In this document: one piece after another, positions 35,362-57,245 of the stretch
Layout of the letters: each line of letters begins with the position of its first letter
How positions within the stretch are numbered: position 1 is the first letter of the stretch
Assembly: GCF_029227915.1 (NCBI RefSeq)
Contig: NC_079879.1
Span: 27,443,095-27,507,094, forward strand
Source: Hydractinia symbiolongicarpus
Taxonomy: Eukaryota
DNA: 64,000 nucleotides
Direction of reading: 5' to 3'
Made by a program: the position numbers and the translations under genes
Notes under the pieces: model-generated
What the model was told of the DNA's origin: nothing
The model's input: the letters and a program-made list of their open reading frames with translations, nothing else
The model's database searches: none

Positions 35362-35625
35362 CTGTCATTCTTTCTTTTCCATTTTTATCAACCAAATCTT
35401 GTTTAGCTTTCAATCGCAATGCAGTTCCAAGTAATATTACACAAGGTTCTACAATGCCAAGATTTTTACACTCTGGTCTTGGATAATAAGTCCTTGGCCC
35501 CTCAATTTGCCACTCTTCTCCAGCTACTCTTTCCACTCCATTGTCATCAAATGAAACCAAGGCTTGAAGTTTTAGTGCCTTGCATGATGGTACAACTGGT
35601 AGCTTAATAATAGCCATCTTGTAGT
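35362..35625 (-). CDS. MVP: major vault protein, exon 5
   Basis: Product YKMAIIKLPVVPSCKALKLQALVSFDDNGVERVAGEEWQIEGPRTYYPRPECKNLGIVEPCVILLGTALRLKAKQDLVDKNGKERMT. Compare human [43 protein letters not shown]...GKERVTGEEW. Confidence 0.85.
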
Positions 35626-36517: not shown

Positions 36518-37674
36518 CTAAATAACAAAGTTACAATTTTTAATAAAAGAGTTGCAGAAGTAGAAAGAGTGTCTATAAACCAGGATTTTATTTGCAACTT
36601 AAATATTGTATTTAATGATATACAAACCTTTTACTTTAATATAGATAATAGTAGCAAAACATTTGTTAATTTGTACGCTAAGTTATGCACTCTTGGATAA
36701 AAATGATTTTAGTTATATAATTTTTATATTTTATATTATTTTTTAATTTGTATATACTTAATAAAGGAAACACCAACTTTTCATAAATTTTTCTCTTGTT
36801 AAAGCATCTGGGTTCCCATTTTTATAGTCAACACAAAATAAATACCATTCACGGCACTGTGAGGCACTTACTCTCTCATTTAATGATGTACACCATTTCT
36901 ATAAATAAATCCCTAATAAAAAACATTGCTTGAATAAGCGAGAAAAAAATCTTTGGACCACTGCTTCACAATCTTCTCCAGACCTATGTTTTCCCAATTT
37001 TTGATTTTTCCTGCAAGGGTGATTCAATTTTTCCAGACTTTATTATGATAGATTTGAGGAGATTTTATTACAAATTTTGTATATACCTATACACAAGCAA
37101 AGAAGGGCCTAAAATAGTATTGGGCTGACTTATATTAATTTAGCAGCATATCTTGCTTATTCTTTCCCAGTCCAAAACCTAGTTGGTGAAATTGTACCTT
37201 TGATAGCAAAATTGTTACATGTATCATTCTGGGTCCTTTCCAAGGTAGCTCATATTAAAGTTTATATATACTCAATTGCCAATGTCCCACAGTGTTAATC
37301 TTGAAAATAAGCAACAAGAGGGCAGCACAACGCCAAGCGCAACGTAATTGCTAACTCTTTTCTTTTAAAGTGGCAAATTGTACGCCATACATCCAACAGT
37401 AGCTTAATTTATTTCCATAGTCTGCTTAAATCAGCCTGATTATTTAAAAAAATTGGTCCAATTTCATTAAGTAAGTATGTGTGTACCTCTCTGTGTGGCT
37501 GAATTTGCTCTGTGGAACATATTACGTATCATTTATTTTTATCAATATACCTAGTTAGCTACCTAGAGCAAGTTAAACATACTTTTAGCTAGCTAAGAAT
37601 TTTTCAAAAATTTTCATTTTCCCTGATTACAAGATGCAAAGAAATAGTTTTGCATAGTATCAAGTAATTCTTAC

Positions 37675-37731
37675 CAAGTTTAATATGTGAGCAAACTCTA
37701 GAGGTTTTAGTCTAATAATATTTCCAGCCAT
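37675..37731 (-). CDS. MVP: major vault protein, exon 1. The start codon is the reverse complement of 37729–37731.
   Basis: Product MAGNIIRLKPLEFAHILNL, donor gtaaga. Compare human [21 protein letters not shown]. The 28 exons sum to 2550 nt, giving 849 aa, and all phases are consistent. Confidence 0.8.
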
Positions 37732-37903
37732 TTTGCCACAGCAGATCCTTTCGTCAAGGAAAATAACAGTTCAAGCCAAACCCAATGAATAGTGGTGCAA
37801 TAGTAAAAAATGCAAGCGAAAGCTAAATAGTAAAACAAACTCTCCTTCGTAGTGTTTTTATCTAAAAATAATAATAATAACAAAAATAATAAAAATAAAA
37901 CAA

Positions 37904-39327
37904 TAAAACAAACCGAAGTGGCTACAAGTACGTGACCGTATTTTAATTTTTTTTTGCTACAAGTACGTGAATGCGTAAAATGCTGGTAAGCGTACATAAA
38001 ATCACCAGTGACGCCCTTTGTGCGTGGCGTGGAGAATATTGCAGAAGGTGCAAAATAGCATTCCTCGTGAGTTATTTACAAGTGAAAGAATTGCTGTTAA
38101 TTAAAAAAATTAATTTATTAAAAATGAATGTTGGTAGTTTTCTAGTTTTTGACGAATTGCTAAAGGCTATTAACGAGCATGAAAAGTCAACTTTTACACA
38201 ACTGTATGTAAGGAGTTCAAGATCAGTAGAAAGTGGAGCAAAAAGAGCTAGCAAAAAAGTTTTTAAGGAAGAGTTGAAGTACGCAGACTACGCTTGCATT
38301 CATGGGGGGAAAGAATTTAAATCAGCTTCTACTGGAAAGCGCAAACATAATGCGCAAGTTTTTTTTATATATATTGCTATCGGTTTTTTTATATATATTG
38401 CTATCGGTATGCACAAAAAAAAATCCGACCGTATATCATACTTGCGGCGAGTCAAATATTCCGTTTTTTCTTACAGGAATGTTTTGATGAAAACCTTTCG
38501 CTGCAGGCATCACAAATGTTAAAAGTGAAAGCCAAAAAAATAAATTCAAAACCATATTTCCAATCTGTGTGGGAAAAATGTTATCTTGAAAGACCTTCAT
38601 AACATGAGCTCAAAAAACAACGAGAGTGGCTGAAATAATGTACAACAGCTACTCGAAGAAATGAAAAGTGTGCCAGGTAAATTTGAATGAAAGTGAGTGT
38701 AGTTACTATTCTTCCATAATAAAAAATTCCGATGCGAAAATAAATGTAAGATAATAACTAACAAATTTTCTTTAGGGGCAACTGTGGTAGCTGGAGACGT
38801 AATCTTTATTTCAATCGTCACAGCGACGAAACAATTAAAAAAACATCATCTGGCACATTACTTTCATCACAATTAGACACATGCATGCAGTGGCTGTGTT
38901 CTTCATTGCCCACATTAACGCTGAACTATTTGACATAGGTACACATATTTTCGTTGCAGCCTCCATGTTCTTTTTTTTGACTAATATGAGCATCATATCT
39001 TCTTGATAATATTCTTAACATGACCGTACCCTGAAAACATATAATCAGCCTTGTAACATACGTAGTCAAAGTTGTAGAGATGTAAATAAAAGCTCCTAGT
39101 TCAGAGAACCCTAAAAAGAAAATATCTTTTCATCGTCAACTCTCAAACCAACCCGCTGGCCAAGCGACTTCTAGAAAAAAGAAATACGTGAGTGCCGTAC
39201 TTCCAACAAATGAAAGTAAAAATACGTAAATGCCGTACTTCTAGCAAAAAATAGTAAAAATACGTGAATGCCGTACTTCTAGCAAAAAAAAAGTAAAAAA
39301 TACGGTCACGTACTTGTAGCCACTTCG
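37904..39327. mobile_element. Non-autonomous Mutator-like (MULE) element, 1424 bp. It has ~75-bp TIRs with sub-terminal repeats and a perfect 9-bp target-site duplication aaaacaaac.
   Basis: Left terminus cgaagtggctacaagtacgtgaccgtatttt... equals the reverse complement of the right terminus ...aaaatacggtcacgtacttgtagccacttcg. The direct repeat aaaacaaac is present at 37895–37903 and 39328–39336. The sub-terminal motif atacgtgaatgccgtacttctagc is iterated three times. The internal ORF resembles a FAR1/MULE DNA-binding domain. Confidence 0.65.
37971..38522 (+). pseudogene. Remnant N-terminal FAR1/MULE-type transposase DNA-binding domain. It is interrupted by a 24-bp tandem duplication and a frameshift.
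   Basis: The segment MNVGSFLVFDELLKAINEHEKSTFTQLYVRSSRSVESG...KEELKYADYACIHGGKEFKSASTGKRKHNAQ fits the FAR1 DNA-binding pattern F.s.eea..fY..yA..gF.vr..s......f.C..eG......gkRk. The sequence ttttttatatatattgctatcggt occurs twice in tandem at about 38355–38405. Confidence 0.4.
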
Positions 39328-39340
39328 AAAACAAACAAAC

Positions 39341-39511
39341 ATGGCAACCACACAGCTGCTTGCTAAAGTAGGAAAAGATTTAGTTTATCCCTACTTTTCC
39401 AGAAAAAAAGAAGGGGAATGGGATAATAATTTTGTTTTTATACAAGCTGCAGATACACAATTTGGACTTATTGATAATTGGGCTGGAAATCCTATCGAAA
39501 CTAGAAATTAA
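39341..39511 (+). pseudogene. CPPED1: CPPED1-like paralog A, first-exon homology. An in-frame TAA at 39509–39511 precedes any usable GT donor.
   Basis: ATG at 39341. Product MATTQLLAKVGKDLVYPYFSRKKEGEWDNNFVFIQAADTQFGLIDNWAGNPIETRN* aligns to paralog B residues 1–50 (KEGEWKGNFTFIQGADTQFGLIDRWFLKNPIENNVW). Homology then jumps to 42533, and no canonical donor avoids the stop. Confidence 0.5.
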
Positions 39512-42500
39512 AAAAGGTTGCGAAGCATTTCGCAAGTTGCAAGCAAAATTAAACTATCCAATACTTTGTCCCTAGCGCTTCTTGTTTCTTTGGCGCTAAC
39601 ATCTTCCGAAATACATCAAAATTGAATGTCATATAGAAGAACCCTGGGGACGAGGTAGGAAAATGAACGCTCTGCGGAACAATTCGTTGCTCAAAAACAG
39701 TTTTTTTTGCGAATAGACTGCGCGAGTATTTGATGTGCGTGGGATATTCTTTTCAAAATGTGCGAGAAAATTAGATTACGCGAAACTAACAAAAACGAAT
39801 AACGCGTGTTAAAATTTTGTACCGCCTTTTCCCACAGAATGGTAAAAGTAAAGAGCGCAATACAAAATTACACTTTTACCAGTATTCCGAAAGATATGTG
39901 ATACATCGAGTTGTACAACCCGCAGAAGTTGGTCCTAACGTTAACGATTTCGTAAATGACCTCACAACAAAACAGTATTTTTTTCACGTAAAAATACCGG
40001 CAGTAGAAGCCACAGAATCTCCTGGAACGAATTTCGAAAACTCACGGGAAACAATTAAAACAAAAACAAACAAATCAAAACAGTTTTTTAACTTTATCAA
40101 GATTTATTAAATAGCTTCAAATTTGGGCAGAAAAACAATAACGGATTCGCCTTCTTTTCACCACACGCATTAGAAGATTACATCACTCACTCCCATTGTA
40201 CACAATCTAAAAGAAAAAGAAAACATTTTCATATAGTGAAGCTTCCAGTGCCTTTAAGGGATGGCCAAGTCAATGGAATTGAAAGAACTGTTTTTCATCT
40301 TATAAATAATTAAGGCTAATTCGGAAAAGTATAAAAGAAAAAAATTAAACAATTTGGCAACTTTACTAATTTTATACGCAAAGTTCCAACCATACCAACA
40401 GTTTCCAAATCTGACAAAATCATTTTAGAAGTGTTTATTTTTTCAGAATTTGATTGATGCAAGGCCAAGGGAAATTAAATAAGTTTATTGTCCTAGACCC
40501 ATTTAAAAACATATGCTTCTCATCATTCAGTTTTTTTTCAACCAACATTAATGTAATCACCCAGAGGAAATTATAATGTCTCTTGTGTGTGTTTTAGAAG
40601 CTGAGTACACAAATACACAAATATTACAAGTGCTGAACTTTGGCAATCATATTTTGCAATCAGACCCTTTTAAAAACTATGCTGAACCATGTCAATTATT
40701 AAATTCAGCACTAATAGAAAAGCACCTTGGATAGGATTCTTTGTTGGGCGAATAAAATGACTGACAAATGGTTTATCGTGAATGAAATAGTAATTTTTAC
40801 ACAAATAATTTAAAAAATAATGAACTTTGTTATGTGGGTTGTTCTCAAACACACGTGGGCGGTGGACAAAAAACTGTGATGTAATTTCTCTTGGTCTATT
40901 ATTCCTGAGAATATTCTAAAATAAGAGGGTGTCAATAAGCTGCAAACAGCCACATATATAAGGGCGAGTTCGGGCAACTTTTCCAATTAAATTAGTGATT
41001 GTCTTCCAAAACCGCCCGCACTTTCCCGAACTTGCCTGGAGCATTTTTAAAATTCAATTCCTTGTAACATACCTTGTGGACGATATTTGGAAAAAGATGC
41101 TTTAAGAGAAAGAAGTTAATAAAAATTAAAAGTTATTTATCAAGTAAATTTTATCAAAAACCATCGAAAACAGTTCTTTTAAGAACTTTATTACCACATA
41201 GTTTACTTTATGGTCTATGCAGGTTTTTTCGGGTGAATACTTCAATTTTTTTGCAAAACGCTAAACTTGCCCAAAAACGCCTGCACGTTATACGGCGTAT
41301 GCAGCTTATCAGCACCCTTGTTCTAAAATTACAAGCAGTTTCGAAGATGCCCAGGCCGTTTAGAGGACGTGGTGCGGATTGGGCATCCTTGAAGTTCTGT
41401 TTAATGACAGTTTTAATGTTTTAATGTCGTTTTAAACCTTGTTCTCAGGGAGGGTGTACGGAAACTAATTCCTATTGACAATTACATTGCTGTTGGTTTG
41501 ATAGCAAAAGTGGATATTTTTTTAATTACTGTAACAGGTTACTTATATAATAAATAAAAAATGATAAAAAACGGTTGGTCAGCTCACTCTAGTGCCCAGA
41601 GCTATTTGTTTTGTCTGCGCCCTAGCTACAGGTTTTCCTATATCTGGCTATCAGTTAGGTAGTAATACAGCTTCTCCATATGATTTCTACAAATTACTTT
41701 CAATTCTTTTATACAAAACTGAGCTCTAGCTAGCTACCTTTCGTGTCATTAAGCCTTACCTTGATTTGGATAAAACCAATTAAAATTGATAATATTGTAT
41801 TCTTACATCTTCTTAGAAACAATAAAATAAAACACAGCTCGGCGCGTTATAATTGTACAAATTACTTCAATTTTTCTTTAGGAAAGGGTACCTTACACAG
41901 GAGCTTTCCAATCCAACTAAAATCTCCAGAAAAAGCACAGCAACAAAAAAGCTTAAAATACACAAGTAAAGTCGATTAGAAACAGGACTAGCAATAAATT
42001 TTTTCAAAAGAAGAAAACCGTTTTAATACTATTATGTTTCATTAAAATACAACTATGATAGTATTAGAAGCAAAATTGCAAAGTAATTGATTAATTATTT
42101 ATACCATAATTAGCTATAATACAAAGAAATAAGGCATATTTTGGGTCTGTAAAATATACGTGTCTAAAATGCCGACTACCGTTTCTTGTTCACGGCATAT
42201 TCCTCTTTGTGTGTTCAAGTTCGGCGGACGTATAATCCGGACCAAAAGACGGGGGGGGGGGGGGTCAAAATCCGGGGGTGGGGGGGTACGAGCCGTACTT
42301 ATTGCATTTTTTACTAAACTTATACTTTAACCCCTCGGTCCAAACTTATTTGCTTTATTAGAAAAAAAAATACCCTAGCTTTATGTGCAAAAATATCAGT
42401 CCTATTTCTTTACGCTGATTTTATATGATTTTTTTTCTATCGAAATTTTGAGAATCTCAATAATTCTCTTGGTATACCTCGCGTGTAGCAAACGTGCTCC

Positions 42501-42532
42501 ACAATTTCGCTTCGCTCGCTTCGCTCGCAAAG

Positions 42533-42845
42533 CTCAATTGCTTCGCAAAAAATGTATGGGATGAAGAAATTAAACTAACAAAACAAGCTATTAATCTTGT
42601 AAATAAAATGTCGCCAAGACCAAAGTTTTTTGTTGTTTCTGGAGACTTAATTGATGCAATGCCAAGAACAATGCATCGGGCAGCACAAGAGGAAGACTTT
42701 AAGAAGATATTCCAAGGTTTGGATTCGGAAATTCCTTTGATTTGTGTCTGTGGAAACCATGATGTTGGAAATAGTCCCACAAAAGAAAGTTTAGAAAGTT
42801 ATCGCAGGCATTTTGGTGACGACTACTTTAGTTTTTGGGTTGGAG
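42533..42845 (+). CDS. CPPED1: CPPED1-like paralog A, exon 2. It carries metallophosphatase motifs II (GDLID) and III (GNHD).
   Basis: Product LNCFAKNVWDEEIKLTKQAINLVNKMSPRPKFFVVSGDLIDAMPRTMHRAAQEEDFKKIFQGLDSEIPLICVCGNHDVGNSPTKESLESYRRHFGDDYFSFWVGG, donor gtaaga at 42846. The acceptor position after caaag at 42532 is tentative. Confidence 0.55.
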
Positions 42846-42927
42846 GTAAGAATTAGTAAACCTGAATATTACTATAAAGCTAATTTTCTTAAATAATTTT
42901 TACAATATTTACTGTTTAGCTAGCTAT

Positions 42928-43558
42928 ATATGCGGCCCAGTCTGATCGATATCCGAAAATGGATATGTCAATTATATCCAAATGTAGATATATGTCCAGA
43001 TTTTGTGAAAAAAGCATAATTTACCTTCTTTCTTCTGACAAACTCTTCTAATATAATATATATCTTAAGCTGGATAAAAATTGTTACAGAATATATCACT
43101 AAAAAGAATATTTTCCAACGCTTCTTTCCAGTTTTCCGCGTGTTCTTAGCTTGTCTCAATCTAACAGAAATGAATTTTGAAGTTAGTTAACAGCGAGCGT
43201 AATATTTTTCAAGTCTTCATTTTACTTGTATTTTATACAAATTAGATTGGTTCCATGGTTTTAAAGGTATACTGTCTCTACTTTTCTGAAAGCTAAGAGT
43301 TTCTTCTTTAACATAGTGTAGGATTAGTGCAGGGACGCTTTTTTGCTCTAAGGTACGTTTTTAGAAAATCAAATACAACAGATTTGTAATATCAAACAGC
43401 TCAACACCCGCCTATTTCCCCGATTATGTTTTATCCTGTTTTGCCTGTTTTTTCTCCAGTCGAGGGATGGCGGGTTAGCTATTTGGCATTGCTGCGCCCA
43501 TTATATCCGAAAGTGAATATATTCAAAACATATCCATTTTCGGATATCGATTAGACTG
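42928..43558. mobile_element. MITE of about 630 bp with 30-bp TIRs (cagtctgatcgatatccgaaaatggatatg). It is embedded in (AGCT)n microsatellite sequence.
   Basis: Left TIR 42928–42957 equals the reverse complement of 43529–43558, apart from one g-to-a change. The element sits between agctagcta tracts. There is no ORF and the target-site duplication is unresolved. Confidence 0.6.
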
Positions 43559-44379
43559 TAGCTAGCTAGCTAATGATACTTAATAAACATGGTATACATG
43601 CTATAGGTGCTTGCATGTAGTTAACTAGATATAAATAGCTAGCTAACTGCATAGAATTTCTAACATTTCTCAATTTTGCAAAATTCTGCAATTTTTTTTT
43701 ATGTGACAGTGTAGTTGGTTTGTTCAGCAAGAAAAACAGCATGTTGTTTTATGTGTGCGAAACCTAAAGTGTAAAATTAAATGCACAAGAAAAGATGCCC
43801 AATAATAAAGGCATAGCAGAAAAGTGGGATGCTGGATGCTGACTGGGACACGGGATGAAGGATGCCAAAAAATCATCCAAATAAAATAATGCAGCGCCAA
43901 TGTTATTTTTTCTTGCCTTTCTTGCCATATTTCAAGCCTGGGGTCAACCTGTCTCTAACCTTATCAAACGTATCTCTACATTGCAAAATAAGGCTGTTTG
44001 ATTGCTAACTTTTTCTCAACCTACTGCTACAACAGATCCTATCTTTTATCAACTTGGTCTTTTAAAATTTTCCGATATTGTACAAATTTCCAACATTCTC
44101 TTTATTAAAAATATTCTCACTGATTCCACTCCTATAGCTCTAACAGAAACCTACGGTATCAAGATCCATCAACATCATTACAATACCAGGAACAAAACTG
44201 TTGAAATGCTTGACCACTTTCTCTCAAACACTACTTACTTTGGTACCAACTCAATTAGATCTCAATGCACTACTTCCTGGAATAATTTACAAAAAGTTAA
44301 CTCTTTATCCTTTATCACATTGTCAAATTCTGTTATAAAATATAAACCCAACAGATTTTTTCTGGACACTTATGAAATG

Positions 44380-44530
44380 ACCCTTCAGTCGTGTGTGTGT
44401 GTGCGTGTTTGTACGTGCTGTATATGTATGTGTCTGTCAACATGGATTGATATCTTAAAGTGTGTGTGTGTTTGTTTGTGTGTGTTTTCTTCGTCCTATT
44501 ATTATTATTATTTTTACTCTTTGGTTTGTA
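44380..44530. repeat. (TG)n and GT-rich microsatellite, plus (ATT)n
   Basis: Runs gtgtgtgtgtgtgcgtgtttgtacgtg...gtgtgtgtgtgtttgtttgtgtgtg and attattattattattttt. This is a possible LINE 3' tail following ORF 44002–44400. Confidence 0.8.
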
Positions 44531-44739
44531 TGGGGAAAATGGAATAGTATTTTCCCTCCCTATACACTTTACCCTTGTTACTCCCCCATTTGGTGGCCTT
44601 CACGGTACTATTAGCTTTGCTATGGTGTTGTTCCCCAGCCATTGAACATAACTATGTATTTATATAATGGATTATACCTACTGTAATTTCAACAAATAAA
44701 TAAATTGAATTGAATTGAAATAGTACGATGGACACGAAG

Positions 44740-45000
44740 GGTCAAAATTTCCACTAATTGTTTTCAACTTTTCCGATATTTGTTTCAACTTTTCCGATAT
44801 TTTTTCTAAGATTTTTTTATTAAGAATTTTTTTTCTGAGAACTTTTTTTGAGAATTTTTTTTCTAGGAATTTTTTTCTAAGAACTTTTTTTTAAGAATTT
44901 TTTCCTAAGAACTTTTTTCTAATAACATTTTTCGGAGAATTTTTTTCTGATAAGTTTTTTGAAAGAACTTTTTTCTGAGAATTTCTTTTCTAATAAGTTT
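44740..45000. repeat. Minisatellite array A with units of about 13–23 bp (ttttccgatatt..ttcaactt and agaattttttttct). It is the inverted partner of array B.
   Basis: The array is the reverse complement of the ggaaaagttgaaaaaaatatc units at 48600–48880. Confidence 0.7.
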
Positions 45001-45039
45001 TTATGGGTTTTACCACTTGCAACTTGTATCACGAAGAAG

Positions 45040-45990
45040 AACATGGATGCTTTAATTAAGCAGTACGTCAGTGATGGTTTTACATATCTGGAGATAATTG
45101 AACTCCTAAAACATCGACATGAATAATAAATAAGTTTATCTATACGGAAATGAAGATTGAGACGTTTAGGAATAAAAAAAGAGCACTTCAAAATGTTCGT
45201 AGTCCGATACAAGATGTTAAGATTGCTGTCCCGCAAGAATTATCATGTAGTGGATCTGATATAGGTTATCGATGAGTGTATCGTTCTCTAGTTTCTCAAG
45301 GCCTCATATGTCGACAAGTAGATGTTCGAAGAATTATTAAAAGTATTGATCCCGACGGTGTAGCTAGGAGACAGCGTAGAAAATTGCATAGGAGAAAGTA
45401 TATATCCCAAGGACCGAGCTTTGTTTGGCACATTGATGAACACGATAAACTTAAACATTTGGATTCAGCATACATGGATGTCTTGATGGATTCTCAAGAA
45501 AGGTAATGTGGCTCGAAGTTGGACCTACAAATAAAATGCCGGAAATTGTGGCAAAGTATTACCTTGACACAGTTGGAAAATTGGTGGTATTCCAATGCAG
45601 ATCAAAGCTGATGATGGTACAGAGCATGCTTTGATTGAACCTCGACGCTGGCGATGGAGAGGTGATGGAATCATTTAGTATCATAACATCACCTCAAAGC
45701 CAAAGGATAAAAGCTTACTGGTCTATCTTACAGAGGGACAGAATAGGATGGTGGCGAAGATTCTTAAGAGACATTTCTTACATGGATTTGTTTTCAAATG
45801 ATGACCCGGTTTTAGTTGATTGTATTAGATTTTGTTTCTTGCAATTAGTTCGTAATGATCTTAATTCAATCAGGACTTAGTGGAATTCGCACATAATCTC
45901 AAAAAGTTGCAACGCTGGACCACGGGGAAGACCAGACAGTATGTTTTACTTGTCCCACCTTTTTGAAGCTGAAAACATGATCATTAAAGT
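45040..45990 (+). pseudogene. Frameshifted integrase-like (DDE/rve-core) gene fragments of an unclassified animal TE family
   Basis: Fragments MDALIKQYVSDGFTYLEIIELLKHRHE*, ...RRQRRKLHRRKYISQGPSFVWHIDEHDKL..., ...WLEVGPTNKMPEIVAKYYLDTVGKL / GGIPMQIKADDGTEHALIEP, and ...AYWSILQRDRIGWWRRFLRDISYMDLFSNDDPVLVDCIRFCFLQLVRNDLNSIRT.WNSH. These span three frames and contain stops. Confidence 0.55.
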
Positions 45991-46593
45991 AGGTGCAGCG
46001 AAAATAAATGAATTTTATTTGGATGTCACAGCTAATTTTTTAGATTATTCTTAAGAATTTCAAGATTTTGCTACCACAGTTATGCATGAAGAAGGCAAAG
46101 GCTTGCCTCAAAATCCAACAGAAGCTTTAGACTTATATTTATTTCTACTTCAGAAAATTAATGAATGTTCTTAGATTTTTTTTGAATACAAAATAGCATA
46201 TTGAATCAGTTGAAAAGTATATTATCCTAACTCACCATCAATAATATACAATAACAACAGAGTATCTAACATAATAACAACTTTTAAACCCTGTGAAATT
46301 AACATAAAGTACAAATATGATGGCAATCATTCAAAAAAGTCACATTTCAAAAAACATAAATAAAAAAAGTCAAAAGATCATTGAGACTGTCTGATGATTA
46401 TGAGAATGTCTATAATTGAGTATCTTCCTTTATTATACAGTGCACCTTAACAAATTCTTCCCTCAATTCGCAGAAGTTATTATAAGTTGCAGGTAGTTCC
46501 GAAGTAGGACTGCATGTATGTGCAATTGGGCGTCTCCCAAAGTCAGATGTTGGTAAATAGAAAGTCACTTTAATTTCAATAACACTAATCAGG

Positions 46594-47315
46594 TCAGAAC
46601 CTGTTGCATTGCAACAATTTCTTTAAGAGTATTACTTGAAGGCCTTTAACAAACCGTTTAAAATATGCAAAAGCTTCCTTTTCTGCTTCAGTGACAGGAC
46701 TTGCTGAAAATAAACTAAGCACTTTTTTGGTGGTTGGTTCAATATCTGCATATAAATGTTCAATAGCCCTTGTATCTGGAAATTTATTTTTCAAGACAAT
46801 AAATACTTCCCTCCAGCACGAGGCCATGATATGCGGCTTTTGAATTAATTCCTGTCGTGCAATTTCACATATCACTGCATGGACATTCTCCTTACGTACT
46901 AAAGTACGACATTTAAAAACCTCAAGAAAACCTTTTAAATCTTCATTTTCCTCAAAATGTCCATTAAAACTTGGAGATAATATGTTATTAATTAATTTAA
47001 CCTCATCATCAAAAGCATGTTTCTTGAAGGAATCAATTAGTTCATCATCATTCACACACCCAAACATACAATATAGGTTATGAAACATCGACTAAGAACT
47101 GTAGGAAAATAGCCAACGTCAATATAATCCTTTGCTAGGATCATTCCAATTGCCAGCCACTCTGCAAGGTACATGTCATGCCTAACAAATGGCACGCGTT
47201 CTGCCTCACAAATCAAAAAACTGTTCGAAACTTCCTGCCAAAATGCAGTATATACGTCTCGCTTAATGCCGCTTCCAACTCCAATTTCTTCCTTTCCACG
47301 GGGATCAATAAACAC
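46594..47315 (-). CDS. HECT-domain protein, G2E3-like, no catalytic Cys motif seen. The C-terminal part is encoded in two frame-shifted segments.
   Basis: Segment 47052–47315 encodes DPRGKEEIGVGSGIKRDVYTAFWQEVSNSFLICEAERVPFVRHDMYLAEWLAIGMILAKDYIDVGYFPTVLS, which matches the HECT N-lobe pattern. Segment 46594–47088 encodes ...NDDELIDSFKKHAFDDEVKLINNILSPSF...IMASCWREVFIVLKNKFPDTRAIEHLYADIEP.... The two are out of frame relative to each other, which implies an intron or a frameshift. Confidence 0.45.
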
Positions 47316-47339
47316 ATAATTTCGTCTGCAATATTTACC

Positions 47340-48300
47340 TACAAAAAGAAATCAAGCCATATAATTTAGTTTTAAATAGAAAGCATAATAGAAAATATTT
47401 TTGCTACTAGATTTAGGTTATTTCTGTATTTCTAACATTTTCTTACAAATATGTAACAACATGTAAATGTTTATATTATACTAGCTTAACTAGCTTTGTG
47501 TATTTTGTGTATACAGTGTTGCCTGAGGATGAGTAAAACAACAGTTAAACATTGGGGAATATAAAATTGGATATAAGAACCTTAAATTCATATATACCTT
47601 GTTCTTCATATAATGATTTAGTAAATCTGTTGAAACTTTTGTGCGATGAATGTGGAAGGAATATTTCTTTATTTTTGGAGTAATTGGTTCAAATGGTTCT
47701 ACTCTTAATAATCTTATCTCCGAAGTTGCGGGATGTTCAAAATTACAAGAATTTGTATTTGCCTCATTTTTTTCTGGTGTGGGTGGAGCAGCAATTTCAC
47801 CATTAAAAAGTTCATACGTGGTCAAGTCAGTGATATTACTTGGTAGTTCTTGTTGATTTTTCTTTGGTCTGCAGACAATGATTCGTTAAATGCAGTATTT
47901 TGTACACAAACAAGGCAGCAATCTATGTAAGTGCAACCACATACAACACATTTTTCTCTTTCTTGTGACAGAAAGAGGTGCATCAGATGAAACATCATTA
48001 TTATTTTGTTGTGCTACATCATCACCGTCATCATCACATTTTCCTGATAAATCATTACTGACAAAGAAGTCATCATTGAAATTTGTTAATTCTGATTTTA
48101 GCACAAAGAAGGTTTTACTAAGTTAAAATCCTTTTTTCCTGACATACTCAAAGACATTCAATTCTTCATCTAACTCTGTCAATGTTGCATCACAAATTGA
48201 TAATGTACATTCTAACGTGTTTTCTTCAAACGAATTCTTAAAACAATTGTCAAAAAATAATTCGGTCGACTTAGATTTGATGTCTTTAAATGAGCTGTAT
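47340..48300 (-). pseudogene. Putative upstream N-terminal part of the HECT/G2E3-like gene, with frame breaks
   Basis: Minus-strand ORFs 47490–47825 and 47886–48104 continue the same gene, including the segment KRKMCCMWLHLHRLLPCLC. Open reading frames run to about 48300 with at least one frame break. Confidence 0.3.
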
Positions 48301-48599
48301 TCGTCGATTTCTAGAGATCTACAGCCACCACCTTAATTTACTCTTATCAGTTGGTAAGAGCCTGTACGTCAGTACCACTTTATTTGCACTCGTTTTAAGT
48401 TTTATTTTGTTGACACAGAGTTTGATTTACTCCCAATTTTGCTTAGTAGTCCACAAGTATTGTTTCATAAGAATTTCATTTATTTTTGCCTTTTGCTTTC
48501 TGTTCCTTGTCCTCCATTTTTGTCATATACTTTGCTACTGCACGCTTTACAACGTCCTCCATCTTGTTTACAGATTGATAGCCTGAATAATCCAACTTT

Positions 48600-48880
48600 A
48601 ATCAAACACGGAAAAAATAAAAAAATTGGCAGAGATAAAAAAAAGTCAAAGAAGTTGAAACAAAGAATTAGGAAAAAGTTGAAAAAATATCAGAAAAGTT
48701 GACAAAAAAATCCGCAAAAGTTGGAAAAATTATCGGAAAAGTTGAAAGATTTTCGGAAAAGTTGAAAATATATCGGAAAAGTTGAAAAAAATATCGGAAA
48801 AGTTGAAAAAAATATCGGAAAAGTTGAAAAAAAATTCGCCAAAGTTGAAAAAAATTCTTGGAAATCTTGATCCATCTTAG
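48600..48880. repeat. Minisatellite array B, about 11 copies of a ~23-bp unit (ggaaaagttgaaaaaaatatc)
   Basis: A clear tandem array, inverted relative to 44740–45000. Together the two arrays bracket a 3.6-kb interior. Confidence 0.8.
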
Positions 48881-48949
48881 TATAGGAATATGTTTTATGA
48901 AAGAGGAAACGTATATAACCATAAGCTAGAAGATATAATTAAGCTGCCT

Positions 48950-50480
48950 TAATTTAAAAAGTTACATCCTAAACGAAAGAATGAAACGAACCGAGTAATA
49001 ACAGAGGAAGAAAGAATTACACCGAAATTGAAAACAAGAATAAAAATAAATAGATAAAAAGAGGAATAGCGAGTCATTGTATCATCAATTAAAACCAACT
49101 GATAGTCAACCTTCACGTTTATGTGGCTTAGCTAAAGTTCTTAAAACGAACACACCAGTAAGACCAGTTTTGTCTATGCCAGGGTCAGCATATTATGAAA
49201 TCGTTAACCAGGTTTCGAAATGGCTTTCTGTTGTTGAAGAATGTAATGTAAACGCTTAACAAAATCGATTTCTGACTCTTTGCATCAGATAGAATTGAAT
49301 GAGGAAGACGAATTAATCGGTTTTGACGTGACTTCGCTGTGTACGAACGTACCAGTTAATAAATGATTGTTCAGAATTGCTCTATTCTGGAAAATATGAT
49401 AAACCAACAGTAGATAAGCAGAATTTTATTTTTTTTTGCTTATTATCTGCAGCTGCAATGTTATTATGTTAACTAATGATGGATATTACAAGCAAATAGA
49501 TGGATTAGCTATGGGTAGCCCACCAGCTCCCATGATATCTAATGGTTAGCTTAGCAAATATGATCATGAGATTAAAGGCAACGCATAACTATTTTCAAGG
49601 TATATGGATGATATTCTTCGGAATAGTAAAAAGCATGAAATACATCGGGAGCTTGAGGAGATTAATGATTTACATCCTGCATTTAATTTACAGTAGAGAG
49701 GGAATTCAATGGTAGTATTCCATTCCTTGACATGCTCATTAAACGAATTGGGCGCAAATTGTCCTCTACATGGTACATCAAAGCCACCGATACAGGTCTA
49801 ACTATGAATTTTCATTCCCTCACTATTGAAGTATAAACGATCTGTAGTGGCACATCGAATAGTGCGTGCTTGTATTCCTTGGAAAGTTGTTCATGAAAGC
49901 CTAGCAAAAGCGAAACAAATTCTCAAAAATAATCAATACCCTGTTTCATTCTATGAACCCATTATTAAGAAAGTGTTGGAATCAGTTGTTATACCTAAAG
50001 AACTGAAAGGTGAATTTAAATCAGATGAACAGGTACCGTGTAAAATTATGTTCATTCAACAGAAGACGCATATCAGATAAGTTTGAACAGTCACTTAAAA
50101 GAATGGACACTTCTTGTAAAGTTGTCCTCGCGCTAAGAAAAGTTAAAACAATATTAACGCCGTTAAAGCCAACGATCGAAACAGCTCTTAAAAGTGGTTT
50201 AGTTTACCAAATTACACGGTGTAAATCGTGCTATGTCAGATAAACAACCCGCCATTTACTAACCTGCAAAAAAGAGCACACAAGGTCGACAAGTCCCGTT
50301 GGTAGTCACTTCAAATCATGCAACATTGCGCTCACAATGGATGACGTTATTATACTTGTTTCATCAAGCAGATCGTCCCATCATTTAATGGTTTTGGAAG
50401 CGTGATATATTCGTCAAATTAAACCAACTTTGAACACAAAGGACGAATATAAAAGTCATACATTAGTGGAATATAATAAT
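48950..50480 (+). mobile_element. Degenerate Penelope-like element with RT and GIY-YIG endonuclease remnants
   Basis: RT fragments: LKPTDSQPSRLCGLAKVLKTNTPVRPVLSMPGSAYYEIVNQVSKWL, ELIGFDVTSLCTNVPVN, QIDGLAMGSPPAPMISN, RYMDDIL (the YxDD motif), and HPAFNL..REGNSMV.FLDMLIKRIG..L.TWYIKATDTGL. A linker follows: KRSVVAHRIVRACI. The GIY-YIG motif then reads GLVYQITRCKSCYVR.TTRHLLTCKKEHT...ILVSSSRSSHHLMVLEA.YIRQIKPTLN. Several stops and frameshifts are present. Confidence 0.65.
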
Positions 50481-52316
50481 GAACGACGTTTTCAGGGATG
50501 TTGGCAACAGTTTATTATAATTTTTGTTTAAAATATGATTTAGATGTGTTGTAACATTCGTTAGAATTTGTTTTTAAGCTGTGCATAATTTTTTAATAAA
50601 CCTATTTTTAAACTGTTATTTATGTGTTTCATAGAGAGTGAATCTGATGGTGAGTTACAAAAACTCGAAATATTTTATTCAAATAAAATTGCGTTGTTGG
50701 TCATTAAAATTTCCCGAATAAAAGCAGAAAAATTCAAAATTTAAAATGTGTAAAATTTTATTCAGCACACAAAAATCCAAAATCCAGTTACAAAATCGTG
50801 TCCAGTAGAATAATCGAAATATGTTTAAAATCCAGAATCGAGTTTCGCAATACAAAATAATATTCACAATGATAAGAATAACAGATTGCAATCATACAAC
50901 GTCTCAAACGCACTACTACACTGGCAAACTATTCGCGCATGATTCGCTCATGTTTTCAGTCGATTAATTTTCCTGATCATTTCGGTAAGTAGACCGTAAT
51001 TTGTAGCGCGGATATTTCTGTCTACTCTTTATGCTATAAGCCATGAAAACCTGGTTTCTTCTCATGTTTTTTATTAAAAAGAAAAACAGCAATTCGTAGT
51101 CACGAAAATTTTCGTTTTTCTCACTCAATAAAATAAACACTCACACATAGACTGGTTTCTGCAACATCAACTATTTCAATCTCTTTTCAGAATGTATAGC
51201 TCGAGAGCGCTACTTTTTCAGATCGGAGGCATTTACATTTATTGCTTGATATCTCAACCTCGCCAAATGATAGATAAAAGTTCAATGTCAAACAAATCGT
51301 TTCGTATCACATTAAGTTCACCAAACGAAAAAAAAAAAAAAAAAAAAATTAAGTCTTCATTTCTAGCTGTTTTATTCTTTTTAGAAAATACCGGCGTAGT
51401 TCAGTAACGGCATGGTCAGTATTTTATTTCGATGAGTTTTTTGCATCCCGTATCTCGCATCCCGCATCCTGCATCCCACTTTTCCGATATGCCGCACAAA
51501 GAAAGATGCACAAAAATAAAACTTGCGTGAAAGCCTAATCAACCGATCAGCCCAAAGTAGGTGTGGTCACGTCTTACTATCTTCAATAATCTAAGAATTA
51601 ATTAGACTTGTTCAGGTGAGTGAGCCCATTCGCGCTCAAAACAAAGGATTTCCCGATATTCTATTGACCACGTATAAGCCAAAAACAATAGAATTAACAC
51701 TGGGTCTCAAACGATTTTTATGGATACAAGAGCTTGCTGTAAAGAGGCCTTGTTAAACCGATTTAATAAATTATCAGTTGCAGATTGAGATCTTTCAACT
51801 CATATATATTCCTGTAAACTCCTAACGACACCTTTGTGCGAATAAAGACTTTTTGCCTGCCACGCAATTGCTGAAGCCAAATGAGCTTTCCATAGAGAAT
51901 GTGAACATGTCAAGATATCATGAAGAGTATAAGTCCACACTGCTAAAAATGATAATTTGTAACTTTGTAAGATATTTAAAGTATGAAGTTATGCTTAGTA
52001 CTTTATGAAATCATTAATGATGGCTTAAGATTAGATGGAAATCTTTGGAGTTACAAAATATGTAATAACTAGGATGGTTAAAGAATCAATTACTGAAGAT
52101 TTACCTAAGAAGAATAGAATATTTTAAAGTTGTATGATGTATGAATTTTAAAAGAATATACATGATGAATTTAACTTTACTCTTAACTAACTTGAAACAC
52201 TGTTGTTTTAAAAGTATTTCAAAAAAAACAAAAGTTTTAAAAACCAATTCATAAAATTTCTTTCCGCGAAATTTTAAGCTGAACTTCAAACTCACATCAA
52301 GTCGTAATAATAAATT

Positions 52317-52924
52317 CCGGCAACATTTCATCCAACATTTTTTTTCATTGTTGGATGAAATGTTGATGAAAAAATGTATGCTGGATGAAGCAAAATTTTA
52401 GGTTTGTGGGACTGCTTTTAAAAACATTCAAACGATAAAGAGCTCATTCATTCCTGAAAAACAAAATGGCGGACTGAAGGAGTTCTGCAGTGCTGCTTAT
52501 GTTGCTGAACGAACTCGTCGATTCGCACGATGAAAAATCAACCCGCGGAAAAACAAGAGAGTGGATAAAGAGGAGGGAACAAAATGGATATTTTAGTAAT
52601 ATCATTAAAGAATTGAAGATCGAAGACAGATTCGGATTTAGGGAAATGTTTGGGATGGATGTGGGGGATTTTGATTTCCTCCTTAATGAAATATCCCATC
52701 TGAGTTTTATTTCTTGGATAAAAAGTACCACAAAACCAATCCAACATAAGAATGTTGGCTAAATTGTTTGACGGCGATCAAACTTCATCCAACATCGTCC
52801 AACACGATTTCTTTCTTCTTTTTTGAAAATTTCATATTTTTTCAAAATTTTGAAGTGACTCAAAGCAGTCCAACATTTTATCCAACGTCATAAAAAATGC
52901 ATGTTGGATTAAATGTTGGTCTGG
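52317..52924. mobile_element. Harbinger-derived non-autonomous element of about 610 bp with palindromic TIRs (ccRgcaacatttMatccaacat)
   Basis: Left ccggcaacatttcatccaacat matches the reverse complement of right ccagaccaacatttaatccaacatg. The internal ORF 52490–52762, ...REWIKRREQNGYFSNIIKELKIEDRFGFREMFGMDVGDFDFLLNEISHLSF, resembles the N-terminus of HARBI1/PIF transposases. Confidence 0.5.
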
Positions 52925-53469
52925 TTTGCCCCCGCCTCAAGGTATAGTAGAAAGTAACAGAAAAGTTTTCACCTTTGACTGCAACATGTTTTCATTGTTT
53001 GTATAATGGCATTACCTTTTGGTTCGAATTAGCGCCAAACATTTACTGAAGTATCGGGAATGGTTCAACCTTTATATATCCAACCAAGCATCCATATTCT
53101 GTTGCACCGTCCACACCCCTGCTCTGCAAATAACGGGTACCCACTAAAATACAAAATGTAAATTAAAGTGTTGAACAGTTCTTTATTGCTATCACTTGTT
53201 TAGTAAGGATTTTTGCTGTTAAAGAACTGCACTAATTTGTTTATATAAAATATTCCAGGTAAAAAAACCTAAAACAACCCTCTATCTTTTTGTTATGTAA
53301 TTTGGCCATCTATTTATAAAAATAAGTTCATAAGCGCCCGCTTCTTCTAAGCGCCAACAAGTATTTGTTTAAACTGTTGCGGTACTGTTACAGCTAGTTT
53401 TATTTTATTTTATTTTAGGCGTATCTATATAATAATACGGAGATTTTATTTTAGGCGTATTATTTATAG

Positions 53470-53918
53470 TACTAAACTCTCAACTATACGCAGATCACAT
53501 AAATGTCCCAGATGAGTATGAAAAACAAGATAAATGGATAGATACGCAGTTAAATATTGTTAGATCAAAAGAATGTAAACATTGTATAGTCTTTCAACAC
53601 ATTCCTTGGTTCCTTCAAACGGCTGATGAGGAAGATGAGTATTTTAACATTAAAAAAGAACCGCGTTTCAGAATGTTAAACAAGTTTCGAGAAGCTGGAG
53701 TAAAGCATATCTTCTGTGGGCATTATCATCGTAATGCAGGAGGTTTATATGGTGATCTCGAGGTGATTGTAACGTCTGCTATCGGCTGCCAGTTGGGAGA
53801 AGATAAATCTGGAATGCGAATTGTTCGTGTCTCGGAAAATAAAATTGAACATAAATATTATGGATTACAGGAATGTCCTACCTCATTGTCACTGAATGTG
53901 TCAGTTGACCTTCCATGA
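53470..53918 (+). CDS. CPPED1: CPPED1-like paralog A, terminal exon. It carries the GHYHRNAGG metallophosphatase motif.
   Basis: Acceptor tatttatag. Product VLNSQLYADHINVPDEYEKQDKWIDTQLNIVRSKECKHCIVFQHIPWFLQTADEEDEYFNIKKEPRFRMLNKFREAGVKHIFCGHYHRNAGGLYGDLEVIVTSAIGCQLGEDKSGMRIVRVSENKIEHKYYGLQECPTSLSLNVSVDLP*. Phase matches exon 2. Confidence 0.6.
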
Positions 53919-55313
53919 TTTCATGTTAATTTGTTTTCATATTATATTCTGTGTATGCATATTTTATTTATGTATTTTATATGTTATGTATGCATACTGT
54001 ATTTACATTTTTATTGTAAATATTTTTATACACAAACATAGTATACCCCTTAAGAAGCACCTTTATTCAATAAGTGCCCACTCTTGAGTAAGTGTTGTCT
54101 TGAACATATTGTTAGGAAGGTTCTTTGGTATCAAAACAAAAATAAAATGACGTAATGAGGAAGTGTATTTTCTTAGCAATTTTCTGTGAATAAAACATTT
54201 ACAAGTTTTCTAACAATTCAAACATATTTGCATCACACCATGTTCTTTATCGCTGCTTTCGTCTTTATCAGCAACCATTCGCAATTATTTTTTTACATAT
54301 ATTCATCCCACCTTGCCTTACTGTTGATTATTCGCACCTGCAACAGGTAAATTTAAGAATGCTATCAAGTTCCAACTTCATAGCAGTTATAATGGCCAGT
54401 CATAATGGGGTCATAGAAAGCATCTCTAAGTTTCTAACCCTGGCAGGTTTCAAGGATGGACCTAAAAGTGATTTCCATTTGATCACTTGCAAGGGGTTGT
54501 GCAAAACTAGTTCGATTTGCAAGATTTCCATAAAGACGTTGTACCGCAAGTCTTCCAATGTGCTTGATTCATTTTTTTTGTAATTGAAATATACAAGCGA
54601 AAAATATAGAGAAAACTTTTGACATATTTCAGTTTTTTGCATTTAAACAGGTAATATGCAGAAAGCTACACGCATATTTGAGTGATATACACCTGATGGT
54701 GCGTCTAATGTAAAGCTATATTTGGGTTAAGGTTGAAAAATTGCAACTTCGACTACAGGATGAGACATGGTTTTACAGGAAATGAACAAAAGTTACGTAC
54801 GTATGGCTAGGTATAATAATTAAGTTTTAAACAAAAGAAATTAATTCCTAAACGCTTTGATTGGCATAGAATTGATCACAAGATAAAGCAAACCAAGATG
54901 ATCTTTTGGGTGATATTTTTGAATGATGAAGTTGTAAACATTAAATGTTACATTTGTGCCAGCGTTTATTGCACAGAACTTGCTGTCAGATGCAACTATG
55001 AGATGTCATTTTAAAAATCCTTTTAAGAGAAGTGTTTTTATAACAATATAACTATTTAAAGTGATTCTATGAAATGATTATGACGATGTAATGTAATTTA
55101 ATATTAAGTTTGTTTGTTGAAAGCGTGGGATAAAATAATAAAGTTGTAAAATGTATAAGCTTGTTGAACAACGCATTCAAAGAAAACATCAGGCGTAGAG
55201 AACAGCACGAGCTTAAAACGTGTTTTCATATCACTTCGTTGTATTAACATATTTCAGTGGATGCTAACGATTTTACACACATCACGTTGTACTTTTCTGT
55301 AGTGTAAACAAAT

Positions 55314-55767
55314 ATGGCGGCAGGAGATTTCCGTCGTTCAATTAACGGTGTATATCCTGGATTTACCCACGAAAAAGAAGGAGAGTGGAAAGGAAATTTT
55401 ACCTTTATACAAGGTGCTGACACTCAATTCGGTTTGATTGACCGCTGGTTTCTTAAAAATCCTATTGAAAATAACGTGTGGGACCAAGAGATGGAACTGA
55501 CTAAGCAAGCCATAAAACATGCCAATGAAATGATTCCTAAACCGAAATTTTTCATCCTGTGTGGAGATTTGATCGATGCTATGCCTCATACGAAACACCG
55601 TGGTGTACAAGAAGAAGATTTCAAGAAGTTATACAGTGAACTTGATTCTGAAATACCTTTAGTGTGTGTTTGTGGTAACCACGATGTTGGCGATATACCC
55701 ACGAAGGAGAGCTTAGAAAGTTATCGGGCGGAGTTTGGAGATGACTATTTTACGTTCTGTGTGGGAG
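55314..55767 (+). CDS. CPPED1: CPPED1-like serine/threonine phosphatase paralog B, exon 1 of 2
   Basis: ATG at 55314. Product MAAGDFRRSINGVYPGFTHEKEGEWKGNFTFIQGADTQFGLIDRW...KPKFFILCGDLIDAMPHTKHRGVQEEDFKK...IPLVCVCGNHDVGDIPTKESLESYRAEFGDDYFTFCVGG, donor gtgagt. Compare human CPPED1 [21 protein letters not shown]...KPKFFVLCGDLIHAMP...IPLVLVSGNHDIGN...WGDDYFSFWVGG. Confidence 0.85.
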
Positions 55768-56781
55768 GTGAGTTTTTACTTTGGTGTACCTGCATACAAG
55801 TAATTTCGTCCATATTCAAGTCAGACCTATCAGTACTAGACAGGAGCTTGAGGTTTTATTATGGTACCAGTCAAACCTGTGGAAAAATCCACTTAGAAAG
55901 TAAGAAATTTTATGATGTTTTAAGAGTTTTGATGACATCAACAGTGCATATGCAAAAAATGTTTTTGGGGAATTTGTTTAACCGTTGCGTCTAAACAGAT
56001 TGAAACGCTGTAAAAAAAATAAAAGGATTATGTGCTTTCCACTAACGGTTAAGGATATATCAAAGTTTAAAAGTTCCACAAAAGTACAAAAATTTTTTTA
56101 GAATTTTTTATAATACCTGTTGTCTTTTGTATAGAGCTTTAAACAACGATTAATAAATAAAAAATATTTGAAGAATCATGTTCAAATTATTTGACTTCAA
56201 ACCTAAAAGTACAACGCATTGGCTTCACTAATCTTATTTAACATATTGACGTCAATCTAATGTATTAACATTAAATTTTTGTAAACGACAGAACAGTTTT
56301 ATAGCCGATGTTTTATAATCATCAGAGAAAATTTTAGAAATGTTATTCACTATGGGCGTTACAGACTTTTCGTATTAATTAATAAATATATCCTACTTTT
56401 TTTTGTAATATCTTATTAAATGTTTAAGCATAAACGTTTCTTCCCATAATTAACAAATTATCCTAAATCCAATTTTTTACGATCTTTAGTGTTTTTTAAA
56501 CCTCCTGCATTGCGCAAGCATGTTTATGTCAATACGACACAAATAGATGTGATATAGCCTAAAAGCCTTGGTTAAATTAATCAGCAGTCTTCGCAGCAAT
56601 CCTTGTTTTATTTACGATTTTTTGTTAGCAATATTTTACTTAGTAAGTGTGGACAAACATTTTTATTTTGGTAGGACGGCTAACGTGTTCACGATATTTG
56701 CGGACATTTCACGTTCGGTATAATACTATTCTTCGAGACACAGACGTGTTTTTGAATAGTCCTTACTTTCTTTTTTTTCAG

Positions 56782-57245
56782 GTGTTTTCTTCATTATTGT
56801 CAATTCACAGCTATTCAAAAATCATGTCAACGTGCCGGAGGAGTATGAAGCTCACTTAAAGTGGATAGACAGACAATTAGAAGTTTTCAAATCTTCCAAA
56901 TGTAAGCACTGCGTTGTTTTTCAGCACATACCGTGGTTTCGTGAGAAAGCAGATGAGGTGGAGAGCTATTTTAATATAAATCCCGAACTTCGCTTTAAAA
57001 TGATGGATAAATTTTTGGCGGCCGGTGTGAGGCATATTTTCTGTGGTCACATTCACCAGAACGCGGGTGGATGGTATAAAGATTTAGAAATTGTGGTCAC
57101 ATCAGCAATTGGGTGTCAAACTGGCGAGGACAAATCAGGATTTAGATTAGTTCGAGTTGCAGAACACAATATTGACCATAAATATTATAATTTAGGAGAA
57201 TGCCCAAAACATTTTGATTTAGATGAAAAGAATGACTTGCCCTAA
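56782..57245 (+). CDS. CPPED1: CPPED1-like paralog B, exon 2 (terminal)
   Basis: Acceptor ttttttttcag. Product VFFIIVNSQLFKNHVNVPEEYEAHLKWIDRQLEVFKSSKCKHCVVFQHIPWFREKADEVESYFNINPELRFKMMDKFLAAGVRHIFCGHIHQNAGGWYKDLEIVVTSAIGCQTGEDKSGFRLVRVAEHNIDHKYYNLGECPKHFDLDEKNDLP*. Total product is 305 aa. Confidence 0.85.

Follow-up and report, generated by a model that had tools for sequence, protein, structure and literature searches.

The DNA analysed here is a 64,000-nt, AT-rich stretch of the Hydractinia symbiolongicarpus genome (NCBI RefSeq assembly GCF_029227915.1, contig NC_079879.1, positions 27,443,095 to 27,507,094 of the forward strand), referred to as the window, with all positions counted from its first letter. 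It carries two CPPED1-like metallophosphoesterase genes in tandem, referred to as copy A and copy B. In the assembled haplotype, copy A is probably (about 70%, in our estimate) a very young null allele, or nascent pseudogene, whose loss of function is predicted from a 3,048-bp insertion in its first coding exon that carries an in-frame stop codon, and copy B appears to be the working gene. An earlier note on this DNA, made from its letters alone, had described copy A as fragmented into three pieces, whereas the actual lesion is this one insertion within one coding exon.

The coding sequence of copy A falls into three blocks of homology, which contain no frameshift or stop and together are identical to the RefSeq protein XP_057307884.1 (306 aa). 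For comparison, the N-terminal half of copy A, used as a query, matched an 89-aa fragment (P0189, 91% identical) encoded on five read-assembly contigs from a related lineage, of which L007-L009 are unspliced or genomic and L010-L011 are spliced complementary DNAs (cDNAs). The parts of copy A are as follows.

39341-39500, plus strand: coding exon, 5' part, encoding Met1-Glu53 plus 1 nt, with motif I (AADTQ); equals residues 1-53 of XP_057307884.1
39501-42548, minus strand: coding-exon insertion, 3,048 bp, non-coding; absent from L007-L011 and from copy B
39509-39511, plus strand: in-frame TAA ending the copy A frame, within the inserted DNA
42549-42845, plus strand: 3' portion of that coding exon (KNVWDEE...FWVGG), bearing motifs II (GDLID) and III (GNHD); ends at a GT donor in phase 1
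42846-53454, plus strand: intron at the conserved position, phase 1, GT..AG, 10,609 bp, enlarged by insertions
53455-53918, plus strand: last coding exon, bearing motifs IV (FQHIPW) and V (GHYH); TGA at 53916-53918, 3' untranslated region (UTR) to at least 54081

All five contigs of the related lineage read CCTAT-GAAAAAAATGTATGGG across the insertion site. They pass from ...CCTAT(C)GAAA straight into AAAATGTATGGG / AAAATGTATGGGATG, colinear with the window, and the 5' part of the copy A exon thus directly adjoins 42549 onward; the sequence of this insertion-free (empty) site is CCTATCGAAAAAAATGTATGGG. Exon 1 of copy B is likewise unbroken at the homologous point, as are the genomic first-exon open reading frames (ORFs) of other hydrozoans (P0153, P0155-P0157), which end just after FWVGG/FWVQG. 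Since the exon is uninterrupted in copy B, in the related contigs and in these hydrozoans, the ancestral gene had two exons like copy B, the apparent first intron of copy A is an insertion into an exon, and the TAA is part of the inserted DNA. The reading frame agrees: the first block (39341-39508) continues straight into the stop codon, the insertion starting in frame as ...ACT AGA AAT TAA, and deleting 39501-42548 gives PIEKNVWDEE, exactly as long as the corresponding PIENNVWDQE of copy B and P.ETRVWDEE of the outgroups. The earlier note had missed both the nature of this 3-kb gap between blocks 1 and 2 and a further insertion of 1.47 kb upstream of the ATG. It had also placed the second block at 42533-42845, of which the end is correct; homology begins at about 42549-42551, and 42533 is merely the nearest AG.

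RefSeq models the 3-kb segment as an intron, which would also be expected if it were an ancestral intron kept in copy A here and lost from copy B and the related lineage. We regard this as extremely improbable, given the non-canonical borders, the uninterrupted exon in every other homologue examined, and the fact that homologous coding sequence meets both sides of the segment with no residues lost.

The borders of the insertion are uncertain by about 2-3 nt, owing to an A-run at the site. If they are instead drawn at 39509-42553, the element would be flanked by a 4-bp AAAT target duplication (39505-39508 and 42550-42553) and the ancestral protein would have read ETRNVWD. The borders defined by L007 are preferred because they require no extra events and give a protein length equal to that of every other homologue.

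Normal splicing does not bypass the stop codon at 39509. The only GT dinucleotides of the copy A exon (39368, 39383, and 39434) are all upstream of the AADTQ motif, and a scan of the first exon found no GT between motif I and the TAA, hence no canonical donor that could skip it; on this point, and on the end of first-exon homology at the TAA, the earlier note was right. Downstream of AADTQ there is a single GC (TGG|GCTGGA at 39482), a poor donor. A GC-AG rescue from this donor to the acceptor at 42532|42533 was considered and rejected, as besides the poor donor its product would swap AGNPIE for LNCFAK.

When every join was enumerated, XP_057307884.1 could be obtained only via 39508|42557 (borders TA..TA) or 39509|42558 (AA..AT), and the modelled intron at 39509-42556 has neither GT-AG, GC-AG, nor AT-AC borders. 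The RefSeq join is offset by 8 nt from the insertion borders, such that the native K-N-V is replaced by T-R-N, which the element end CTAGAAAT encodes after GAA-A. Other hydrozoan homologues have ETR[T/V]W at this place, and because a protein-guided alignment would score ETR above the native EKN, a non-consensus intron would be placed there. The 306-aa model of copy A is therefore most likely a homology-guided modelling artefact. The earlier note had named a full-length ORF for copy A, reached through a non-canonical or alternative first exon, as evidence against a pseudogene; RefSeq does hold one, by way of the non-canonical join, but a computed model of this kind does not amount to transcript evidence.

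Could copy A nevertheless work, with the 3,048 bp removed from its pre-mRNA by a non-canonical intron or some other RNA excision to give the 306-aa protein? The RefSeq entry exists and bears no low-quality flag, the removed length is a multiple of 3, the ORF is otherwise perfect with all catalytic motifs and a low ratio of non-synonymous to synonymous substitution rates (dN/dS), and the element has inverted repeats near both ends. However, borders of TA..TA or AA..AT match no known spliceosomal class, and the two ends of the insertion, paired as RNA, fold no better than shuffled controls (z = -0.38). The 8-nt shift of the join is what a protein-guided aligner would choose in following ETR[T/V]W, rather than what excising the element would yield, and copy A is evidently a gene that can be lost, as happened in the related lineage. 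We consider a working copy A of this kind unlikely. A more specific version, in which the transposon became a new frame-preserving intron precisely spliced out at non-GT-AG borders, leaving T-R-N encoded by the element, is very unlikely; no support for such removal was found among the joins or in the RNA folding examined. It would recall introners in that a mobile element within a coding exon is modelled as a frame-keeping intron. Introners bring along or generate GT..AG borders and are present as many copies, whereas copy A would need TA..TA or AA..AT borders and no second copy of its element was seen in the window.

The second intron of copy A is at fault in neither position nor splicing. 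The join 42845|53455 is the only canonical solution that gives the copy A protein at this intron (all joins enumerated), and the related-lineage cDNAs L010 and L011 join ...TTGGGTTGGAG to GCGTATTATTT, exactly this junction. The intron shares its phase-1 position with that of copy B and of other hydrozoans. Because of the conserved position and the precise splicing in related cDNAs, the 10.6-kb intron is no defect; it is a conserved intron lengthened by insertions that are absent from the related lineage, and the reading of it as damage in the earlier note does not hold. The terminal exon, placed there at 53470-53918, does end at 53918 and starts at 53455, with the acceptor AG at 53453-53454. 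At this acceptor, a perfect 18-nt direct repeat (ATTTTATTTTAGGCGTAT, at 53407-53424 and 53443-53460, spacing 36 nt) doubles the splice site of the last exon. The related cDNAs take the second copy; the first, if used, would add GCGTATCTATATAA and a stop codon.

Copy B corresponds to the description given in the earlier note, as a complete and compact gene of two exons encoding 305 aa.

55229-55767, plus strand: copy B exon 1, with the 5' UTR from 55229 or further upstream and coding from 55314; cDNA L001 aligns to 55229-55770
55768-56781, plus strand: copy B intron, GT..AG, phase 1, 1,014 bp; spliced out in L001-L006
56782-57760, plus strand: copy B exon 2, coding to the TAA at 57243-57245, with the 3' UTR to about 57760

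Its coding sequence (55314-55767 joined to 56782-57245) translates into a 305-aa protein with a Metallophos domain, identical to XP_057307883.1. The counterpart of copy B in the related lineage is transcribed and spliced (L001-L006), and the dN/dS of copy B against that lineage is 0.20. Copy B is predicted to be a functional CPPED1-like gene because its frame and motifs are intact, its sequence is constrained, and spliced transcripts exist in the related lineage.

CPPED1, or calcineurin-like phosphoesterase domain-containing 1 (human CSTP1), belongs to the metallophosphoesterase superfamily (PF00149). Phosphatase activity on AKT Ser473 has been reported for the human protein. Both Hydractinia proteins are named "serine/threonine-protein phosphatase CPPED1-like" in RefSeq, and across animals both match best to proteins that carry the name CPPED1 or CPPED1-like, with 50-58% identity along the full length. 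Copy B scores 48.6 bits against the Pfam Metallophos profile (curated cut-off 21.5), and PF00149 is listed as a precomputed assignment for XP_057307884.1 of copy A. In the alignment, the five metal-ligand motifs (DxQ, GD, GNHD, H, and GHxH) are readable in both copies, as AADTQ, SGDLID, GNHD, FQHIPW, and CGHYH in copy A and as GADTQ, CGDLID, GNHD, FQHIPW, and CGHIH in copy B. The residue before the GD motif is Ser in copy A and an otherwise invariant Cys elsewhere. A sequence search of the PDB returned nothing beyond a marginal match to a purple acid phosphatase.

The two copies are 65-66% identical to each other, in line with the 65-70% estimated previously. In a neighbour-joining tree they cluster apart from all other hydrozoan homologues (195/200 bootstraps), and the longer branch is that of copy B. 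Two copies in tandem are present in Hydractinia, whereas the other hydrozoan transcriptomes in the match list show one type. Since A and B group together in the tree, they are lineage-specific tandem duplicates in Hydractinia.

The lineage that supplied the contigs probably is the sister species H. echinata, although the grounds for this are indirect. Between it and the window, the synonymous divergence (dS) is 0.065 for copy A and 0.083 for copy B, and the non-coding flanks differ by about 12%. H. symbiolongicarpus has a heterozygosity of 1.33% and split from H. echinata about 19 million years ago (PMC11067881). The divergence is far above that heterozygosity and is compatible with H. echinata; also, the runs behind L001-L011 are not among the H. 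symbiolongicarpus RNA sequencing runs listed in PMC10411563.

Copy A has decayed independently in this lineage. L007-L011 lack not only the exon insertion (39501-42548) but also the upstream insertion (37862-39327) and two insertions in the intron (42932-43559 and 43810-51493). Instead, the related copy A has six lesions of its own, namely a start codon changed from ATG to ATT, losses of a single nucleotide at each of coding positions 13, 80, and 156, a gain of 2 nt at 358, and a stop codon changed from TGA to TTA, which are consistent in five contigs from five sequencing runs. Despite these lesions it is still transcribed and correctly spliced. Judging from its sequence, copy A is dead in the related lineage, and hence dispensable.

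Selection on copy A seems to have lasted until recently in both lineages. Comparison of the window with the related copy A gives a dN/dS of 0.23 (11.5 synonymous and 10.5 non-synonymous differences; P = 4e-4 vs. neutrality), indistinguishable from the 0.20 of copy B. Polarised with copy B and the outgroups, only about 2-3 derived amino-acid changes (C84S, G93R) fall on the window lineage, and the window allele shows neither relaxed selection nor secondary lesions, having no further frameshift or stop. Copy A thus appears to have been constrained, and presumably functional, for most of the time since the split, and, given a dN/dS of 0.23 between the two copy A sequences, both inactivations would be recent as well as independent. 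The pseudogene suggested in the earlier note is accordingly upheld in part: the full-length protein is most likely lost, as the TAA cannot be bypassed, and the loss is not old, as the frame is otherwise perfect and dN/dS is 0.23.

Between the same two copy A sequences, the first exon (39341-39500 plus 42549-42845) has 9.5 non-synonymous and 4.5 synonymous differences, and the last exon (53455-53918) has 1 and 7, respectively. The four indels of the related copy A likewise all fall in exon 1. Even downstream of the lesions, the last exon seems to be under strong constraint (dN/dS 0.04); these are small numbers.

We propose the following sequence of events. In the Hydractinia lineage, tandem duplication of a CPPED1-like metallophosphoesterase gene produced the two copies, of which copy B would have retained the compact two-exon form of a working gene. 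Copy A, originally of two exons like copy B, would have been under purifying selection until recently, and would then have gained transposable elements (TEs) in the assembled haplotype: 1.47 kb before the ATG, two elements in the intron, and 3,048 bp in the exon. The decisive hit would be the last, between Glu53 and KNVWDEE. Translation of any normally spliced copy A transcript would stop after 56 residues, and 1.47 kb of foreign DNA would now part the ATG from its former upstream region.

Several points weigh against this explanation. The length of 3,048 is an exact multiple of 3, and the first bases of the insertion encode T-R after Glu53, like the ETR of other hydrozoans, which makes the borders uncertain; we treat the frame-keeping length and the T-R match as coincidence, with a chance of roughly 0.6%. 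In RefSeq, copy A is listed as a normal protein-coding gene. The Helitron-like identity proposed below for the exon element rests on one copy with no RepHel gene, no 5' TC, and a repeat of 10 nt. Further, the insertion may be heterozygous or polymorphic, and the gene may thus still function in the species.

This last point leads to an alternative in which an intact copy A still segregates and functions, the insertion being a presence/absence null polymorphism. It would fit that the window allele is free of other lesions and that few derived amino-acid changes fall on its lineage, that heterozygosity across the genome is reported as 1.33% (PMC11067881), and that the four insertions all postdate the split from the related lineage. 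Against it, four insertions in one 14-kb locus and an independent loss elsewhere suggest that selection had relaxed beforehand. No insertion-free copy A of the reference type is present in the collections searched either, a weak argument as copy B of the reference type is also absent there. We hold this alternative to be possible rather than probable.

The earlier note had also raised an expressed, N-terminally truncated copy A that would start at MSPRPKFF (Met74), without motif I, and have a regulatory or dominant-negative role. From 42494 onward the frame indeed stays open, with the canonical intron spliced out, until the stop at 53918, and the locus is transcribable, as the related lineage indicates. 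However, a transcript from the normal promoter would have a 56-codon upstream ORF and 3 kb of the element before Met74, the protein would lack its first metal ligand, and no such protein is found in the collections. The related lineage has moreover broken the same frame (by the 2-base insertion at 358), so no conserved function attaches to it. The chance that such an isoform is made is, in our view, slight. Neither the 56-, 82-, 120-, and 81-aa ORFs of copy A nor its predicted products with the TE retained, spliced from the internal Met, or freed of the insertion (three versions) occur in a collection of 15 billion proteins; these absences are uninformative on expression, since copy B of the reference type is also absent outside NCBI.

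A very young null allele thus remains our preferred reading of copy A, which resembles young transposon-made duplicate pseudogenes in having a frame intact but for one stop-bringing insertion, a redundant tandem paralogue that would still be functional, and an independent loss in the sister lineage. It differs from them in being annotated as protein-coding in RefSeq. For annotation, this would mean that one of the two RefSeq CPPED1-like genes probably does not yield its predicted protein from the reference haplotype, and that three residues of the RefSeq prediction for copy A derive from a transposon end. The locus may further serve as a small, clean, and datable case of losing a redundant tandem duplicate, by a transposon in one lineage and by point lesions in its sister; the duplicate retained is copy B, the more divergent one. 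As such it is an ordinary loss of a redundant duplicate and opens no new biological question.

The exon element itself has the following terminal features.

39518-39535, minus strand: hairpin TTGCGAA-GCAT-TTCGCAA, 7-bp stem, 13 nt before the terminal CTAG (39504-39501) on the minus strand
39518-39527: hairpin arm TTGCGAAGCA, an inverted repeat of the opposite terminus
42539-42548, minus strand: inverted repeat of 10 nt, TGCTTCGCAA, at the terminus that forms the element's 5' end in minus-strand orientation

Read on the minus strand, the element is 5'-TTGCGAAGCA...TGCTTCGCAA-N13-CTAG-3', lying between T and T, and its 3' end reads ...TTGCGAA-ATGC-TTCGCAA-CCTTTTTTAATTT-CTAG. It contains no long ORF, and its ORFs have no Pfam match. 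A search of the 64-kb window found neither a second copy of it nor long terminal inverted repeats. We tentatively regard it as a Helitron-like element on the minus strand, probably non-autonomous, with a confidence somewhat short of an even bet.

Two classes of Helitron-like elements offer partial matches. Canonical Helitrons (HLE1) have a 3' CTRR after a hairpin, a 5' TC, and insertion between A and T, and Helentrons or Helitron2 (HLE2) have a T-T target without duplication, terminal inverted repeats of 12-16 nt, and a stem-loop after the right repeat (PMC11417382). Like HLE1, the exon element ends in CTAG on its minus strand with a hairpin 13 nt upstream, within the range of about 10-20 nt applied here; unlike HLE1, it lacks a 5' TC (its 5' end being TTGCGAAGCA) and sits at T|T instead of A|T. 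Its apparent T-T target, with at most a small target duplication, and its short terminal or subterminal inverted repeat recall HLE2, from which it differs in that its repeat is 10 nt rather than 12-16 and that the stem-loop overlaps the right repeat and does not follow it. It has no RepHel ORF, and family and termini are judged from a single copy. The empty site in L007 has 7 A's, compared with 3 + 6 flanking the insertion, which fits a T|T target with 2 element bases; these counts fit a 2-bp duplication or A-run slippage equally well.

The related lineage has an insertion of its own in the copy A intron, 325 bp at L007 1260-1584, between window positions 43750 and 43751. Part of it resembles window 39745-39803 within the exon element (80% over 59 bp), which suggests a shared dispersed repeat.

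The other insertions around copy A are as follows.

37862-39327, unstranded: upstream insertion, about 1.47 kb, not present in the related lineage; its right end lies 13 nt before the ATG of copy A
42932-43559, unstranded: miniature inverted-repeat transposable element (MITE), 628 bp, with terminal inverted repeats of about 29 bp (CAGTCTRATCGATATCCGAAAATGGATAT), absent from the related lineage
43810-51493, unstranded: Mutator-like element, 7.68 kb, with terminal inverted repeats of about 30 bp (GGCATAKCRGAAAAGTGGGATGC...); the target duplication is degenerate, 10-12 bp, and the related lineage lacks the element
about 52320-52935: short element, presumably the Harbinger MITE of the earlier note, with a palindromic CAACATTT[C/A]ATCCAACA motif at either end; its right end reads ...GGTCTGGTTTGCCCC

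The upstream insertion is delimited by L007, in which 137-471 aligns to window 37521-37861 and the alignment then resumes at 39335. It has subterminal repeats, and at its right end a unit of about 38 nt is repeated in tandem roughly three times. A decayed ORF inside it (37971-38522) gives a weak FAR1/ZSWIM3_N-like match (E 5e-5, below the curated cut-off), the sole Pfam match, itself sub-threshold, among the ORFs inside the insertions. The Mutator-like element holds several frame-shifted ORFs without a Pfam match. Of the three TE insertions that the earlier note had placed in the intron, those at 42932-43559 and 43810-51493 are borne out by their absence from L007. The third encloses a 90-aa ORF fragment (52490-52762) and has no Pfam match, and its Harbinger label is unconfirmed.

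Further upstream in the window, on the minus strand, a 380-aa ORF at 21196-22338 encodes FERM_N and FERM_M domains. About 6 kb away, an ORF at 15248-15745 on the same strand carries an identical copy of the last ~150 residues of that protein, beginning at GVHFVYESYIEKF..., and this repeated FERM C-terminus would indicate a local segmental duplication. Also on the minus strand, and unrelated to the CPPED1 genes, are an intronless 367-aa F-box ORF (24219-25322) and an exon encoding Major Vault Protein repeats (35180-35617).

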